Below, one piece after another: positions 2,363 through 37,439 of a stretch of DNA of 64,000 nucleotides. This DNA is from an uncultured Candidatus Saccharibacteria bacterium (GTDB lineage: Bacteria; Patescibacteriota; Minisyncoccia; Phycocordibacterales; Phycocordibacteraceae): contig CAZJKG010000004.1 of assembly GCA_964546795.1 (NCBI GenBank), forward strand, positions 18,994 through 82,993, in the 5' to 3' direction. The translations under genes were made by a program, and so were the position numbers. Each line of letters opens with the position of its first letter. Positions within the stretch are counted from its first letter, which is position 1. The notes beneath the pieces are model-generated. The model was not told the DNA's origin. It saw only the letters and a list, made by a program, of their open reading frames with translations, and ran no database searches.

Positions 2363-3688
2363 TTAGCCCGTCCAACGAGCGGCAAGGATGGAGAAGTCGG
2401 TGAGGTTAACTTTACCGTCGTTATTGAGGTCCGCTTTCGTTCCATTACCAGAAAGTGTTCGTTTATACCAATAGGCCACTATGGAGAAATCAACAAGGTT
2501 GACGCGCGTGTCAGTATTAATATCGCCAATGCTAGTTTTTTTAACCAGTTCCGCTAAGACATTTTTTGTTCCCACTTTGAAATTCACTGCGGGACTGAGT
2601 CCACTTACAAGCTGATTTCCTATAAGTGCTTTTGATTGGGCACTGTGCGAACCATATTCAAGCACCGAACTGTCAAAGTTATACAGATAGACACCGATCT
2701 TATCAGAAATCGTTTTCCCAAAGTATGTTTGGTCCGAATTGACAGAAATGACAATATCGCTTTGCGGGGCCGATTGTCCGAAAAGTGTGATGATATCGCC
2801 TCGATTTACTTCACTCTTGTTCGCCGCAATGGTTGGTGCAATGAAAATACCCGTCACATTCGTTGTAACGCCAGCGGTTAAACTTACGGGAAAAGAGAGG
2901 AGTGCTGAGCGATTGCCGTTATTGTCTTCACTGTACACCGAAAAAATAAAATTTCCCGCGCTGAGATTCGCTACGTTTATCTGAAACGTAGCATCTGGCC
3001 CTGCGATTGATGTGGCTACAACTTGCGCATCCTTGAGAATCGTAACTGTTCTGCTCGGGTATGCTCTGCCGCTAAAGTTTGCGCCGGTGTTTGAGACAGG
3101 AATTATTGCACCGCCTCCTCCTCCGCCACCGCCACCGCCACCTCCTCCGCCACCGCCACTATCAGAAGCTGCGGGGGTTCCCGACGTCTGTGTTGATGTT
3201 GCAATTCTGTTACCAAACGCATCTTTAGGGTTAACGACAAAATAATACGTTGTGCCATTCGTGAGCCCTGTCCTCGTTGAGGAAGTCACATTTCCTAGCG
3301 AAGAATACGTGTAAGGACCGCCAGAGGTTGTGGACTGTCCGACGTCATATCCCGAGACCGTCCAACCTATAAATCCTTCCGAGGCCGTCCAGGTGAGTGC
3401 CACTTGAGCATCGCCGGCCGTCGCGCCAACGGCCGGCGTTGATACGAAAGGATACGCGATAAAACCAGGATTGATACTGAAGGAGGTTGCACTGCTCGTA
3501 CTGTGGGCAAATTCGGAAATACTGCTGAAGAGCGTGAAGCTACTTGAAGTCGCGTATCCGCCTGGATTCATGACCGGGCTAAGCACTTGATAAGTGGTGG
3601 AAGTAAGATCTTCCGCATGAGCGATATCGAATCCGATACTCACGAAGAGCAAGAGAAATGTTCCCCATCGAAAGATTCTTTTACACAT
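2363..3688 (-). CDS. Secreted fibronectin type III / poly-Gly linker / type-I dockerin domain protein
   Basis: Signal peptide. FN3-like segment (ALTWTASEG...GTTYYFVV). 16 consecutive Gly codons. C-terminal tandem Ca-binding dockerin repeats GDINTDTRVNLVDFSIVAYWY and ADLNNDGKVNLTDFSILAARW. Confidence 0.6.
   Translation of the reverse strand: MCKRIFRWGTFLLLFVSIGFDIAHAEDLTSTTYQVLSPVMNPGGYATSSSFTLFSSISEFAHSTSSATSFSINPGFIAYPFVSTPAVGATAGDAQVALTWTASEGFIGWTVSGYDVGQSTTSGGPYTYSSLGNVTSSTRTGLTNGTTYYFVVNPKDAFGNRIATSTQTSGTPAASDSGGGGGGGGGGGGGGGGAIIPVSNTGANFSGRAYPSRTVTILKDAQVVATSIAGPDATFQINVANLSAGNFIFSVYSEDNNGNRSALLSFPVSLTAGVTTNVTGIFIAPTIAANKSEVNRGDIITLFGQSAPQSDIVISVNSDQTYFGKTISDKIGVYLYNFDSSVLEYGSHSAQSKALIGNQLVSGLSPAVNFKVGTKNVLAELVKKTSIGDINTDTRVNLVDFSIVAYWYKRTLSGNGTKADLNNDGKVNLTDFSILAARWTG
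3110..3157 (-). repeat. (GGN)16 simple-sequence tract encoding a poly-glycine linker
   Basis: Plus strand reads ccgcctcctcctccgccaccgccaccgccacctcctccgccaccgcc. Codon phase checked against the ORF end at 2363. Confidence 0.9.
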
Positions 3689-10167: not shown

Positions 10168-10241
10168 CCGCCCCTAGCTCAGCTGGTTAGAGCATCGAGC
10201 TTATACCTCGAGGGTCCTTGGTTCGAGTCCAAGGGGGCGGA
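10168..10241 (+). tRNA. tRNA-Ile (UAU)
   Basis: Acceptor CCGCCCC/GGGGCGG; U8A9; D arm GCUC-AGCUGGUUA-GAGC; anticodon stem UCGAG/CUCGA; loop CUUAUAC; T arm CUUGG-UUCGAGU-CCAAG; discriminator A. Confidence 0.8.
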
Positions 10242-10250
10242 CAAAACAAG

Positions 10251-12780: not shown

Positions 12781-13202
12781 GGGGGTGACCGGCTTTGACG
12801 GTCTGTACCTTGAAAGACGTGCGACGCAGTGCACTCCCGTCATCACTTAAAAACGCGGGAAAACAAACTTGCCAAGAACACTCTTGCAAGCGCAATGAAG
12901 TCGCCTTACTTCGGTAAGGTTGGCGACATCGCGTTCGCCTACGCGACGGCTCGCGGCTAACGCCCGACGCCCTCGCCCAGCGCGACGTTCATCCTCTCGA
13001 GTTCCCGCAGTCGGAGGCATGGGCGGAATTATCTGCGTGATCGTCCCTCGCGTTCCCACGCGTTGGGATTAAATAAGGGATCGAGCAGGAATGGTTTCGT
13101 CTGCGTTCCTCGCATCCTGTTTTAGACACTAACGCTGACTATGCGTCGTAGAAGCGCTTTCATAGACGGATTCGGACCGGAGTTCAACTCTCCGCACCTC
13201 CA
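12781..13202 (+). ncRNA. ssrA: tmRNA (ssrA)
   Basis: 5' end GGGGGUGACCGGCUUUGACGG resembles E. coli GGGGCUGAUUCUGGAUUCGACGGG. 3' end UUCGGACCGGAGUUCAACUCUCCGCACCUCCAC resembles UUCGGACGCGGGUUCAACUCCCGCCAGCUCCACCA. Acceptor GGGGGUG/CACCUCC has G3:U70. Lies immediately downstream of smpB. Confidence 0.8.
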
Positions 13203-13282
13203 CAAAATAACGAGTCCTTCCGAGGACGACTATATTTTGTGAGAATCCCGAGCGTACTCGCGAGGGGCTCCACAACAAACAT

Positions 13283-14085: not shown

Positions 14086-14170
14086 GTGCTGGTGGCGGAA
14101 GCGGTATACGCATCTACTTTGTGAGTAGGTATCCTGCGCGGATGTGCGGGTTCAAGTCCCGTCCAGTACA
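14086..14170 (+). tRNA. Atypical class II tRNA: Leu-type body with UGU (Thr) anticodon, G3:U70, A73
   Basis: Acceptor GUGCUGG/CCAGUAC with G3:U70; D arm UGGCGGAAGCGGUAUACGC (compare E. coli tRNA-Leu UGGCGGAAUUGGUAGACGC); anticodon stem UCUAC/GUAGG; loop UUUGUGA; 16-nt variable stem-loop; T arm GCGGG-UUCAAGU-CCCGU; discriminator A. Abuts the candidate rnpB 3' end. Confidence 0.55.
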
Positions 14171-14464
14171 CATCATTACAGCAGAGTAGTGGCGAGTTTC
14201 CTATTAAAATCTACCCTGTAGGGAAAGTATACCCCACCCGTTGAGCGTTATCCACATCCTTACCCGAGGGATTAAGATAGACCTATGAACAACTTCAAGA
14301 ACCTAGCCGACTTTAATAGAGGGGTGTGGACAACGTGTGGTAAGTCGTATACACTATCTGTATATTAATAACTAGGAAGTTGTGAATTTTTGCGGGAGTG
14401 AAAAATTGCAGAAAGGCTCTACTGCGGGGTGTAATTAGGCTAGCGCGAGCTAGAATCGAAAGCA

Positions 14465-35059: not shown

Positions 35060-35929
35060 CTATGCGCTCTTGACTACTGCGTCAATGAAGCCGTCCAGAT
35101 CGCCCTCGAGGACCTTATCTGGATTGGAGGATTCGTGGCCCGTACGATGGTCTTTGACCATTTTGTAGGGGTGGAGGACATAGGAGCGGATCTGGCTCCC
35201 CCACTCGTTGGCGGTCGTCGCAGCGATAGAGCGGCCCTTCGCTTCGCTCTGGCGCTGTGCCTCTTCCTTTGTGAATATTTTTGCCTTCAAAAGTTCGATT
35301 GCCCGCTCCCGATTTGCTAGCTGACTGCGTTCGCTTGAGACATGCACTGAAAGATTGGTCGGGACGTGGAGGATGCGCACAGCCGTCTCGCGTTTATTCA
35401 CGTTTTGGCCGCCGGCGCCGCCCGAACGCGCGAATTGTATCTCCAGGTCGTCCGGCTTGAGGTCTACTTTGTCGGTCGCAACCAGGGTCGGCAACACTTC
35501 CACGAGCGCAAAACTCGTCTGACGCTTCGCATTCGCGTTGAAGGGCGATTGGCGCACCAAGCGATGCACACCCGCTTCGTGTTTTAAACGGCCATAGGCA
35601 CCAGCACCAGTTATTTCAAGCATGACGTTACGATACCCGCCCTGATCGTTCTCATTCGCGTGTAGTTCGCGTACGCGCCAACCCTTCTGCGCCGCATATC
35701 CTTCATACATGCGGCGGAGCATGCGTGCGAAATCCTCGGCATCATCCCCGCCTGCGCCCGCGAGGATGGCAAGCGTTGCGTTGCCGGCATCATGCGAATC
35801 GCCGCTACCACCCTCCTTCAGATTCTGATATTCTTGTACGAGTTCCTGTGCTTTGTTCTTGTCCGACCAGAAATCAGGCGATGCCATCATCGCTTCCAGT
35901 TCTGACAGTCGCTTCTCGTTTTCCTTCAT
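35060..35929 (-). CDS. prfB: Peptide chain release factor 2 (N-terminally short, no programmed frameshift)
   Basis: SPF tripeptide motif (RQSPFNA) and GGQ ([10 protein letters not shown]). The start is 1 nt from tRNA-Thr, leaving no room for the canonical +1 frameshift segment. Confidence 0.9.
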
Positions 35930-35930
35930 G

Positions 35931-36003
35931 AGCCGGAGATCGGATTCGGACCGATGGCCTACCCCTTACGAAGGGGTTGCTCTACCAACTGAGCTACTCC
36001 GGC
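35931..36003 (-). tRNA. tRNA-Thr (CGU)
   Basis: Acceptor GCCGGAG/CUCCGGC; D arm GCUC-AGUUGGUA-GAGC; anticodon stem ACCCC/GGGGU; loop UUCGUAA; T arm AUCGG-UCCGAAU-CCGAU. Confidence 0.85.
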
Positions 36004-36025: not shown

Positions 36026-36478
36026 TCATGATTTCTTCTTTCTAGCGAGAAGTTTTCCTTCTTGTGCCCGCTTACTTGGTGCCCGTGATGACCTTCCGTT
36101 TCCCTTATTTGAACCTCCATATGTTGGATTCAACGCATCGCAATTCGGACATACGAGACGGAGATTTTCTTCAGAATTATTACGCCAATTGCCATCAATA
36201 TGGTCAGCGACCAGCGGTACAAGATTTGTCTTTGGGTTAACTCTCGCCCACCCGCAGAGTAGACATCTGTTGTCGAACTTCTCCCGAAGATATTTCTTTA
36301 CCGGTTTCGAAACCAATCCTATAGAACTCAGACCGCTTATATTACCACTTTTCCATCGCTTTATATATTCCCGGTATTGGAATTCATGCTGACAATTATT
36401 ACTGCAATATCTGTAAAATGAGCGAGCAGGTTCTTTGTCGCATACAGGACATTTTGGTCTCGGTTTCTTCGGATTCAT
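36026..36478 (-). CDS. HNH endonuclease
   Basis: CPVCDK...C..NC zinc knuckle plus HNH core DHIDGNWRNNSEENLRLVCPNCDALN. Sits between two tRNA genes. Confidence 0.75.
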   Translation of the reverse strand: MNPKKPRPKCPVCDKEPARSFYRYCSNNCQHEFQYREYIKRWKSGNISGLSSIGLVSKPVKKYLREKFDNRCLLCGWARVNPKTNLVPLVADHIDGNWRNNSEENLRLVCPNCDALNPTYGGSNKGNGRSSRAPSKRAQEGKLLARKKKS

Positions 36479-36563: not shown

Positions 36564-36824
36564 TGGAGCCGAGAGTCGGGATTGAACCGACGACCTCGTC
36601 CTTCGCTTTTACCTTCTCTCCTTATGCCGCGTAAAGAAGGGCTAGACTGTATCTTTGCCCCTAGGGGGCACCCTTGTCAGTCGTTCGGGCCTTCAAAAAG
36701 AGTGCCACGGTCTTGGCCAGCGGGGCTATTAACCGTTATTCGGGATTCATCCCAGTATTGCTATTAGGATGGGCGGAGTTTGCGACCCACCATGGACGTG
36801 CTCTACCAACTGAGCTATCTCGGC
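36564..36824 (-). tRNA. tRNA-Thr (GGU) interrupted by a 185-nt intron in the anticodon loop; CCA encoded
   Basis: Exon 1 is 36789-36824: GCCGAGA-UA-GCUC-AGUUGGUA-GAGC-A-CGUCC-AUGGU. Exon 2 is 36564-36603: AA-GGACG-AGGUC-GUCGG-UUCAAUC-CCGAC-UCUCGGC-U-CCA. Acceptor halves are exactly complementary, and the joined loop AUGGUAA is the canonical Thr loop. Confidence 0.7.
36604..36788 (-). other. Intron in tRNA-Thr(GGU), inserted between anticodon positions 36 and 37; group-I-like splice-site rules
   Basis: 5' exon ends in U36. Intron begins GGGUCGCAAAC and ends ...AAAAGCG with a terminal G. Length is 185 nt and it has no internal ORF. Fold not verified. Confidence 0.5.
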
Positions 36825-36842
36825 TTCATGCACCTCTACATA

Positions 36843-37439
36843 CTAACGGAGTTCTTTCATTCTTTCAATTTCGCCGATCAAAATATTACGTAATTTTTTA
36901 TTATTAAAATAAACAGTGAGCACTCCATGCTTGGACTTCGTCCGGTAAGTTCCGATACTACCAGAGCGAGTATTGATAATTTTATAGAACTGTCGTGGGG
37001 AAACTTTGAGAAAACGCTGCCAGAATTGTTCTTCTTTCACCTGATCCATATCGCGAAAAATTTGCAGGCCGAAACGAAGACGAGATTCATCAATAGCGTA
37101 AGCTTTTCTTAAAAAGAGGATGAAAGACCGTACTAGATAAGGATCGGTATTGCCAAGTCGTACGGATGTTGGGTTCATTTTAGTACCTTCACCCCAATAT
37201 AAACCGAGACCAAGACCGAAAAGAAATGATTCTTTATTTGTTCGGTGGATTTGAAGCGAAAAAGGATCTCCATGTGGATTGTGTTTCGTATATATCGCCT
37301 CGCTAATCGAACGCTTTGAAATAGAATATTTATCTAGCCAATAATTTATCTTTCCATCGGAACAATGAAATGCTTGAGCGATATCGTGCACCGATTTTCG
37401 ATCGCGAATGTACCAATGCTCCAACAATTTCTTATTCAT
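36843..37439 (-). CDS. LAGLIDADG-type homing-endonuclease-like protein with N-terminal HTH, free-standing
   Basis: FLFGLGLGLYWGEGTK is a LAGLIDADG-motif variant. N-terminal HTH-like segment (SVHDIAQAFHCSDGKINYWL). Paralog of 61048..61815. Lies immediately upstream of the intron-containing tRNA-Thr. Confidence 0.65.
   Translation of the reverse strand: MNKKLLEHWYIRDRKSVHDIAQAFHCSDGKINYWLDKYSISKRSISEAIYTKHNPHGDPFSLQIHRTNKESFLFGLGLGLYWGEGTKMNPTSVRLGNTDPYLVRSFILFLRKAYAIDESRLRFGLQIFRDMDQVKEEQFWQRFLKVSPRQFYKIINTRSGSIGTYRTKSKHGVLTVYFNNKKLRNILIGEIERMKELR

Follow-up and report, generated by a model that had tools for sequence, protein, structure and literature searches.

Group I introns that interrupt the tRNA-Thr(GGU) gene between positions 36 and 37 have been described in three complete Patescibacteria genomes (GCA_001029635.1, GCA_016700375.1 and GCA_030583745.1; Nakagawa et al. 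2026, mSystems, PMC13011429). In that study, in which Castelle et al. (2018, Nat Rev Microbiol) are credited with the name 'divergent group I introns', the Thr introns went undetected by the Rfam model RF00028 and were found with the gpI_bact_tRNA.cm model of tFind (Williams 2020), two of the three were called by ARAGORN as tRNA-Arg(GCG) interrupted at 34/35, and the introns came to lie on a long branch inside subgroup IA. The group I introns of bacterial tRNAs surveyed there measure 184-894 nucleotides (nt), and their mobility was inferred to be limited because most of them encode no endonuclease; flanking genes were not included in the analysis (PMC13011429). Here we report on a stretch of 64,000 nt from an uncultured Candidatus Saccharibacteria bacterium (contig CAZJKG010000004.1, positions 18,994 to 82,993; hereafter the window), whose tRNA-Thr(GGU) gene is split at this very site by 185 nt that very probably represent a group I intron of the divergent Patescibacteria tRNA-Thr family. 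The intron itself is a further copy of a family already noted in genomes of the Candidate Phyla Radiation (CPR), and as such changes little. More consequential is the linkage to a flanking gene, ORF198, whose homologues directly precede the split tRNA in about half of the loci, an arrangement that appears to be unreported.

The split gene is located on the minus strand, as are all features of the locus given below unless another strand is named. Its 5' exon (36789..36824; GCCGAGAUAGCUCAGUUGGUAGAGCACGUCCAUGGU) comprises 36 nt corresponding to tRNA positions 1-36 and ends in U36, the intron (36604..36788; GGGUCGC...AAAAGCG) comprises 185 nt and contains no open reading frame (ORF), and the 3' exon (36564..36603) comprises 40 nt corresponding to positions 37-76 with the CCA encoded, reading AAGGACG...CUCGGCUCCA (complete 40-nt half: AAGGACGAGGUCGUCGGUUCAAUCCCGACUCUCGGCUCCA). 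When the exons are joined in silico, ARAGORN recognises a canonical tRNA-Thr(ggt) of 76 nt with an acceptor stem of 7 base pairs (bp), in which the anticodon stem CGUCC/GGACG and the loop AUGGUAA are restored, just as the initial annotation of the window had proposed when it placed a 185-nt insertion after U36. The split gene escapes default scans of the window with ARAGORN and with the Rfam tRNA model, and ARAGORN in its intron-permitting mode (-i) prefers a tRNA-Arg(GCG) with the junction at 34/35. The repeat of G..GCG at both junctions leaves the formal position of the split uncertain by up to 3 nt, and we regard the Arg call as an artefact of this repeat. The body of the tRNA closely resembles that of the neighbouring tRNA-Thr(CGU) (36003..35931), D arm and U73 discriminator being the same in both; it has U at position 20, as opposed to the A20 of tRNA-Arg; the intron-less orthologues of relatives are tRNA-Thr(GGU); and only the junction at 36/37 yields an exon that ends in U together with an intron that ends in G. 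On these grounds Thr is the correct identity and Arg(GCG) is ruled out. A second tRNA-Thr(GGU) was not found in the window, nor were further copies of the intron core when searched for there. Default tRNA and Rfam scans thus miss the only tRNA-Thr(GGU) found in the window, which matters for the scoring of genome completeness.

A set of 80 loci from GTDB genomes, anchored on prfB and searched by BLAST with the pre-tRNA, contains six homologous interrupted genes of 68-75% identity (L008, L013, L034, L038, L058 and L069). All loci of this set belong to Patescibacteria (labelled Paceibacteria, Parcubacteria, Kaiserbacteria etc.; protein identity up to 94%), many of these relatives carry an uninterrupted gene in the same order tRNA-Thr(GGU) - tRNA-Thr(CGU) - prfB, and close relatives differ in whether they carry the intron. 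When JGI/ENA metagenome contigs were scanned for the two core strings of highest conservation, GAACGACTGACAARGG ... AGATACAGTCTA, at least 120 of them matched. At least 118 copies (the window and at least 117 other contigs) could be delimited, and these represent 111 distinct sequences. All of them interrupt tRNA-Thr(GGU) after U36 and end in G, the terminal G being in part a product of how the parser was constructed, while the exon boundaries are fixed by the tRNA fold. Since the identical split at the same position recurs in at least 117 other contigs, it is not a chance arrangement.

The initial annotation had regarded the intron as smaller than the smallest classic bacterial tRNA introns of group I. 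It is not, however, the outlier that this implies: the copies collected span 169-256 nt with a median near 195 nt, so that 185 nt is ordinary for the family, and it also matches the lower end of the published range of 184-894 nt, even though it is shorter than the Azoarcus intron with its about 205 nt. Some members (L094 4722..4907, L101, L165, L112, L124 and L132) have introns of only 169-172 nt, below the 184-nt minimum of the published survey, and keep all helices. With the published Patescibacteria Thr introns the intron shares phylum, tRNA, anticodon, the 36/37 site and the lack of an internal ORF, as well as the failure of RF00028 and the miscall by ARAGORN as Arg(GCG) 34/35. Since tRNA, position, RF00028 failure and ARAGORN miscall all coincide, we assign it to the family already described; its likeness to the three published introns rests on their description, sequence homology having been shown to the at least 117 other CPR copies. 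Those of the published Thr-intron genomes that were looked up belong to the class Paceibacteria.

The secondary structure of the intron is supported by covariation. A model of 58 pairs was read from the window sequence and projected onto a MAFFT alignment of the 111 sequences, where 92.7% of the 6,402 cells hold standard pairs, as compared to 33-46% when the 3' partners are slid by 1-3 columns. Compensatory changes on both sides occur in 41 of the 58 pairs, and none of 500 column shuffles reaches any of five measures. RNAalifold, run without the model, recovers the anticodon stem, P1, P2, P4, P5, P6, P7, P8 and P9, with 34 of 48 pairs compensatory. The alignment thus supports what the initial annotation had suspected, namely a group I intron after U36 that contains no ORF.

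The individual helices are as follows, with intron position i corresponding to window coordinate 36789 - i. P1 is formed by exon G34, G35 and U36 plus intron G1-G3 (5' strand, 36786..36791) on the one side and by the internal guide sequence UCCGCC (intron 12-17; 36772..36777) on the other. The exon pairs G-C, G-C and the splice-site wobble U36·G15 are invariant in 111 of 111 sequences, and the intron part of P1 covaries between GGG/CCC and AAA/UUU. With U as the last exon nucleotide and G as that of the intron, 36/37 agrees with the group I junction rules invoked by the initial annotation. P2 (intron 18-41; 36748..36771) is a 10-bp hairpin with a GCAA (GNRA) tetraloop and compensatory changes at all ten pairs. 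P3 pairs CCC (intron 45-47; 36742..36744) with GGG (intron 116-118; 36671..36673) in a pseudoknot with P7; it is 99.4% paired and covaries at one pair (CCU/AGG). The joining segment J3/4 reads GAAUAA. The P4-P5-P6 domain follows in canonical order between the 5' strands of P3 and P7: P4 with the P5 hairpin enclosed in it occupies intron 53-82 (36707..36736), the 6 bp of P4 (ACGGUU/GACCGU) being invariant and P5 covarying at all three pairs, and in the P6 hairpin (intron 83-101; 36688..36706) the three outer pairs covary (G-C, A-U, C-G, U-A), while the inner two, which were modelled on the window sequence, are poorly conserved in the alignment. The 5' strand of P7 is A[C]GACUG (intron 105-111; 36678..36684) and its 3' strand CAGUCU directly follows J8/7, AAGAUA (together 36644..36655), a segment that resembles the classical 'S' element of group I introns. 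P7 is 100% paired and invariant, and so is J8/7. P8 (UGCCCC-CUA-GGGGCA, intron 119-133; 36656..36670) covaries at all six modelled pairs, of which the four outer ones are well paired and the two inner ones in about 50% of sequences. The last segment (36604..36642) contains P9.0, P9 and the terminal G185 at 36604; both base pairs of P9.0 covary (GC/GC to AU/AU) and are 100% paired, P9 covaries at 6 of 6 pairs, and the flanking anticodon stem at 5 of 5.

The P7 geometry, A105-U145, bulged C106 and G107-C144, deserves mention since the canonical guanosine-binding site of group I introns is a G-C pair in P7 beside a bulged nucleotide. As G107-C144 never varies, it is by analogy that we propose this pair as the putative guanosine-binding site. 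The sequences also point to a contact between L2 and P8. Where L2 is GAAA, a motif resembling the 11-nt receptor (CUAAG..UAUG) is found in P8 in 41 of 56 sequences, as compared to 7 of 55 with other loops (Fisher p = 6e-11, kinship ignored), and copies with GYAA or another L2, including the window with its GCAA, have a plain G-C-rich P8. This pairing presumably reflects the L2-P8 contact of the Azoarcus-type architecture, and P8 is our proposed docking site for L2. As read from the aligned sequences, the predicted structure is that of a full group I core and not of a minimised one, the intron being short because every peripheral hairpin is short. Where the initial annotation had wavered between a minimised group I intron and something else, group I stands, whereas both the minimisation and the something else are to be dropped. 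A first hand fold had given a core-deleted impression, as its P3, formed by GGCACUCUU (83-91) and AAGGGUGCC (114-122), left no room for P4-P6; this fold was ruled out by the homologues, in which 83-101 is a variable P6 hairpin and the true P3 is CCC/GGG.

Several observations weigh against the assignment to group I. P4 and P7 never vary and therefore contribute no evidence from covariation. For the metagenome copies the search pattern itself fixed P7, J8/7 and the inner two pairs of P3 (CC/GG); at the third P3 pair, which is the one that covaries, it allowed a purine (R). A covariance-model scan, which the initial annotation had put forward as a check, returned no match to RF00028 (Intron_gpI) at E<=10 for either the window or the 230-nt homologue of L008, and the minimum free energy fold of the single sequence is no more stable than those of shuffled sequences (z = -0.94). 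However, P7, J8/7 and the inner P3 pairs are also identical in the six copies found by BLAST independently of the core pattern, and we read the RF00028 miss as a limitation of the model because the same failure is reported in the literature for tRNA-Thr introns.

Could the locus be a tRNA pseudogene with a non-splicing insertion? That standard tRNA finders skip the gene and that Rfam gives no match for the intron would be in line with this. Yet neither exon is damaged, the stems are perfect and the CCA is encoded, the split is kept in at least 118 copies with compensatory changes in the anticodon stem (5/5) and throughout the intron, and no other tRNA-Thr(GGU) was found in the window; we thus consider a pseudogene very improbable. 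The disrupted pseudo-tRNA to which the initial annotation would have turned had no core been foldable is rejected likewise, given that a P3-P7 pseudoknot core was recovered by comparison. Still harder to credit is a group II intron, or an intron of the archaeal/eukaryal bulge-helix-bulge type that a protein endonuclease would remove. A short insert in an anticodon loop may call either to mind, but the insertion is at 36/37 and not at 37/38, the host is bacterial (tmRNA, FtsEX, RF2), the conserved helices are those of group I and not a bulge-helix-bulge motif, and the window contains no match of the RF00029 type. Moreover, group II introns are far larger than 185 nt.

In architecture the intron comes close to the bacterial IC3 tRNA introns, among them that of tRNA-Ile(CAU) of Azoarcus sp. 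BH72, which were reportedly described by Reinhold-Hurek and Shub in 1992. The Azoarcus intron, of about 205 nt, is inserted in the anticodon loop 3' of the anticodon and consists of a compact P1-P9 fold without peripheral domains, which is held by tetraloop-receptor contacts while the anticodon stem holds the exons. The compact P1-P9 layout without peripheral domains and the anticodon-loop site are common to the Thr intron, and so would be the tetraloop-receptor contacts and the holding of the exons by the anticodon stem. In subgroup terms the published placement is IA, whereas the layout found here is like that of the minimal Azoarcus type, with a proposed docking of the P2 GNRA loop into P8 and with neither P7.1/P7.2 nor P2.1. 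The two types differ in their cores: J6/7-P7 is CGAACGACUG in the Thr intron and (C)AGAGACUAGA in IC3-like introns of tRNA-fMet, J8/7 of the Thr intron reads AAGAUAC, and the Rfam model does not score the Thr intron. The IC3-like introns used for this comparison are from tRNA-fMet genes of the same bacterial group (L041, L144, L210-L213) and read ...GUCAAAUUCGG.GAAA...GUGUAGAGACUAGA.GG...AUAGUCC...; Thr-type and IC3-like intron families thus coexist in Patescibacteria.

Judging by its conserved anatomy and by the pathway established for group I introns, the Thr intron would be catalytic and would act autonomously of protein. The UCCGCC guide would pair with exon G34-G35-U36 and intron G1-G3 to form P1, with the U36·G15 wobble marking the 5' splice site. 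Exogenous guanosine bound at G107-C144 of P7, beside the bulged C106, would attack this site after U36. The terminal G185, positioned by the 2-bp P9.0, would then replace the exogenous guanosine, and the 3'-OH of exon 1 would attack the 3' splice site, whereby the exons are ligated. The anticodon stem of the tRNA may hold the exons together in place of a strong P10, and the compact P1-P9 fold may be stabilised by the L2 tetraloop docked into P8. A point against extending this pathway to the Thr introns is that the published splicing assays concern Asn and Asp introns at 35/36 only (PMC13011429). The 111 sequences, some of them as short as 169 nt, with their covariation-supported structure and the L2-P8 switch, outnumber the three Thr introns in the literature and could serve as the seed of a proper covariance model, and they offer biochemistry a set of predicted, very small natural group I ribozymes.

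ORF198 (36843..37439) encodes a protein of 198 amino acids (aa) that combines a helix-turn-helix (HTH) with a C-terminal domain carrying the motif GLGLYWGEGTK, and its stop codon lies 18 nt upstream of the split tRNA. Of the loci that contain the intron, 95 have an upstream flank of 700 nt or more, and in 47 of these tblastn finds a homologue directly upstream of the split tRNA and on the same strand, mostly at a distance of 0-160 nt. The prfB loci offer 34 intron-less tRNA-Thr(GGU) genes whose flank is of similar extent, and none of them has ORF198 directly upstream. Across the collected copies (n=118) ORF198 is of full length in 38, partial or interrupted by in-frame stops in 18 and absent from 47; several of the 18 have ample flank and are therefore remnants. 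Intron length and L2 type are alike in loci with and without ORF198. All five further members that were sampled (56-61% identity) lie directly upstream of a tRNA-Thr gene, and the Thr intron is visible in all three that have enough downstream sequence; members are located at L128 766..1359, L139 2183..2776, L201 2501..3112, L202 2501..3094 and L208 1501..2097. In a larger collection clustered at 90% identity, 1,964 clusters match the family at E<=1e-3, each of them labelled 'hypothetical', and in a library clustered at 50% identity 117 representatives match at E<=1e-30 and 1,968 at E<=1e-10, the latter count including long proteins matched through the N-terminal HTH only.

ORF198 also has a paralogue subfamily (~27% identical, ~225 aa, motif GLGLYWG[E/D]G, 260 hits), whose genes lie 90-130 nt from a split initiator-type tRNA-Met with an Azoarcus-like IC3 intron in five of five loci (L041, L210-L213). 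The two subfamilies are thus found beside two unrelated introns in two different tRNAs, and therefore their function would seem to be tied to intron-bearing tRNA genes. Split tRNA-Met and paralogue are covered by 2622..2917 (-) and 2989..3663 (+) in L041, where a LAGLIDADG gene is also present, and by about 1100..2181 in L210, L212 and L213. The split tRNA-fMet of L144 (3402..3713, minus strand) has no paralogue, so that five of six such tRNAs are flanked.

What, then, would the product of ORF198 do at these tRNA genes? The first ~50 residues form the HTH, with weak Pfam matches to HTH_23 and HTH_28, and it is this segment alone that is matched by the PHROG 'HNH endonuclease' families; likewise, models of phage endonucleases superpose on the HTH at low root mean square deviation, and the viral hits align over its 45-57 residues only. 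The same type of HTH is present in 6-14 tandem copies, without the C-terminal domain, in proteins of 400-820 aa (P0248, P0253, P0259, P0276 and others). Residues ~65-198 form a well-predicted domain (predicted local distance difference test, pLDDT, 87-89) of the topology a-b-a-b-a-b-b-a, with invariant residues that include GLGLYWGEG-K, R..GN.D, Q, D, K and HG. Neither Pfam nor NCBIfam searches place ORF198 in a family. A helix with GLGLYWG(E/D)G at its end and a beta-strand after it, together with a size near that of single-motif enzymes, is reminiscent of LAGLIDADG proteins, but the predicted topology differs from the a-b-b-a-b-b-a of that family, and neither fold nor profile matches place ORF198 among the LAGLIDADG enzymes. 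None of the latter is among the 50 PDB matches of Foldseek listed for either model.

Joint presence and absence of an ORF-less intron and a neighbouring gene is reminiscent of collaborative homing, an established pathway in which an ORF-less intron is mobilised by a neighbouring endonuclease (PMC3984707; also PMC6083498, PMC2790892). An ORF-less intron with a neighbouring gene, a patchy distribution of the pair and degraded copies are all found in our case too; it differs in that the host gene is a cellular tRNA gene and not a phage protein gene, and in that the case for ORF198 is positional and distributional. We tentatively favour the reading that the Thr intron spreads or persists with the aid of ORF198 as a candidate free-standing homing endonuclease. 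ORF198 would cut intron-less tRNA-Thr(GGU) genes, and the intron would protect the allele that carries it. ORF198 itself may be an endonuclease-like selfish gene, a prediction we make with some reserve, since the pattern of presence, remnant and absence and the association with the intron allele fit a homing cycle and not an essential splicing factor. With similar caution the whole family can be envisaged as new free-standing homing endonucleases that target the anticodon region or the flanks of Patescibacteria tRNA genes and mobilise ORF-less introns in trans, both those of the Thr type and the IC3-like ones of tRNA-fMet. In loci without ORF198 the flanks of the split tRNA sometimes contain genes of recognised endonuclease families, namely GIY-YIG in eight loci (Pfam 1e-13), LAGLIDADG_3 in seven (4e-10) and the HNH family of 36026..36478 in five.

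A number of findings weigh against homing by ORF198. About half of the intron-containing loci are without the gene, the linkage counts ignore kinship between loci, and genes of the second subfamily are also found directly upstream of intron-less tRNA-Met(CAU). Foldseek searches of PDB and BFVD with the full model and with the C-terminal domain gave best values of E about 1e-3 and a template modelling (TM) score of about 0.3, the best matches being non-significant ones to OmpA-like and IspF folds, and comparison with PDB sequences gave only spurious matches to the 'YWGQGT' of nanobodies. Pfam LAGLIDADG_3 is matched weakly and below threshold in 5 of 39 members, and hhalign found no similarity to an approximate I-CreI and to four LAGLIDADG_3 proteins from the same loci.

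The tight linkage of ORF198 to the intron-containing gene could instead be that of a dedicated splicing cofactor, a maturase or RNA chaperone of a poorly self-splicing group I intron, and not of a DNA endonuclease. That the intron is compact and divergent from standard models would be consistent with such a need, and among the weak Foldseek neighbours of the C-terminal domain (probabilities 0.2-0.6) are RNase P/MRP subunits and L7Ae. However, roughly half of the intron loci lack ORF198 and several contain remnants of it, although these are locus-level data from contigs and a copy may exist elsewhere, and intron length and L2 type are unaffected by its presence. Moreover, the paralogue subfamily accompanies an Azoarcus-like IC3 intron, and such introns self-splice without protein, and the N-terminal domain is an HTH of the DNA type common to phage endonuclease families. 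A splicing cofactor is therefore unlikely in our view.

Less unlikely, if still doubtful, is that the intron is immobile and vertically inherited, with ORF198 an unrelated HTH protein or a selfish gene that settles at tRNA flanks independently of the intron. This would agree with the limited mobility inferred by Nakagawa et al. (PMC13011429), a conclusion drawn from the lack of endonuclease genes in tRNA introns, with the absence of a recognisable nuclease domain from the searches of ORF198 and with the position of the paralogue upstream of intron-less tRNA-Met(CAU) as well; integrases beside the split tRNA in eight loci mark tRNA flanks as a general hotspot. Mere settlement at tRNA flanks would not readily explain why ORF198 is upstream of intron-containing tRNA-Thr(GGU) genes in nearly half of the cases and of intron-less ones in no case, why two subfamilies flank two different intron-bearing tRNA genes, and why the intron is patchy among close relatives. 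For these reasons we retain homing by ORF198 as our preferred, tentative reading. If true, it would overturn the published inference of low mobility for tRNA introns without an endonuclease gene, and an endonuclease function of ORF198 would both explain the persistence and spread of ORF-less tRNA introns in strongly reduced genomes and extend the short list of homing-endonuclease types by a new protein family.

Downstream of the split gene, the window contains a gene for a 150-aa HNH endonuclease (36026..36478), set between the tRNA-Thr genes at a distance of 88 nt from the split one and of 22 nt from tRNA-Thr(CGU). Its product matches PHROG HNH families at E 2.8e-17, 4.9e-14 and 5.7e-14 and carries the motif DHIDGNWRNN...NLRLVCPNCD, by which it belongs to the HNH/treble-clef proteins, the Pfam HNH_3 match being below the cutoff (20.4 vs 24.8 bits). 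Homologues occupy the same place in L008, L120 and L140; in L012, where no tRNA-Thr(GGU) was found in the locus, the homologue is directly upstream of tRNA-Thr(CGU), and L018 and L064 have the homologue but no intron copy. The intron-less tRNA-Thr(CGU) (35931..36003) is a conserved downstream neighbour, with prfB next to it. The latter (35060..35929) starts 1 nt after the tRNA and encodes a release factor 2 (RF2) of 289 aa, in which the PCRF match begins at profile position 95; since prfB matches or genes of relatives measure about 260-305 aa, RF2 may as a rule be short at its N terminus in this lineage. Further neighbours are genes for CTP synthase, FtsX, FtsE and SemiSWEET, besides the short RF2, and the window also contains a tmRNA.

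In eight of the collected loci (L082, L092, L129, L133, L138, L168, L184 and L198) genes for tyrosine recombinases of the phage integrase family lie 33-61 nt downstream of the split tRNA-Thr, which suggests that integrative elements also use the split tRNA for attachment. The 3' end of ORF198 contains sigma-70-like hexamers (TTGAAA, 17 nt, TAGTAT; 36840..36868, minus strand) that end about 15 nt before the tRNA start; such matches are no more frequent here than in shuffled sequences, and the hexamers are at most a putative site. Elsewhere in the window, ARAGORN calls an 86-nt tRNA at 14086..14171 (+) as Thr(UGU); its variable arm appears to be long and its D arm type-II-like, unusual traits in a tRNA-Thr, and it has the lowest Rfam score among the tRNAs of the window (47.4 bits). 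At 10168..10242 (+) there is a tRNA-Ile with the anticodon UAU, which is rare in bacteria. The tmRNA gene (12781..13205, plus strand) is 425 nt long as compared to a model of 374 positions, with the extra sequence located downstream of the tag-coding region.

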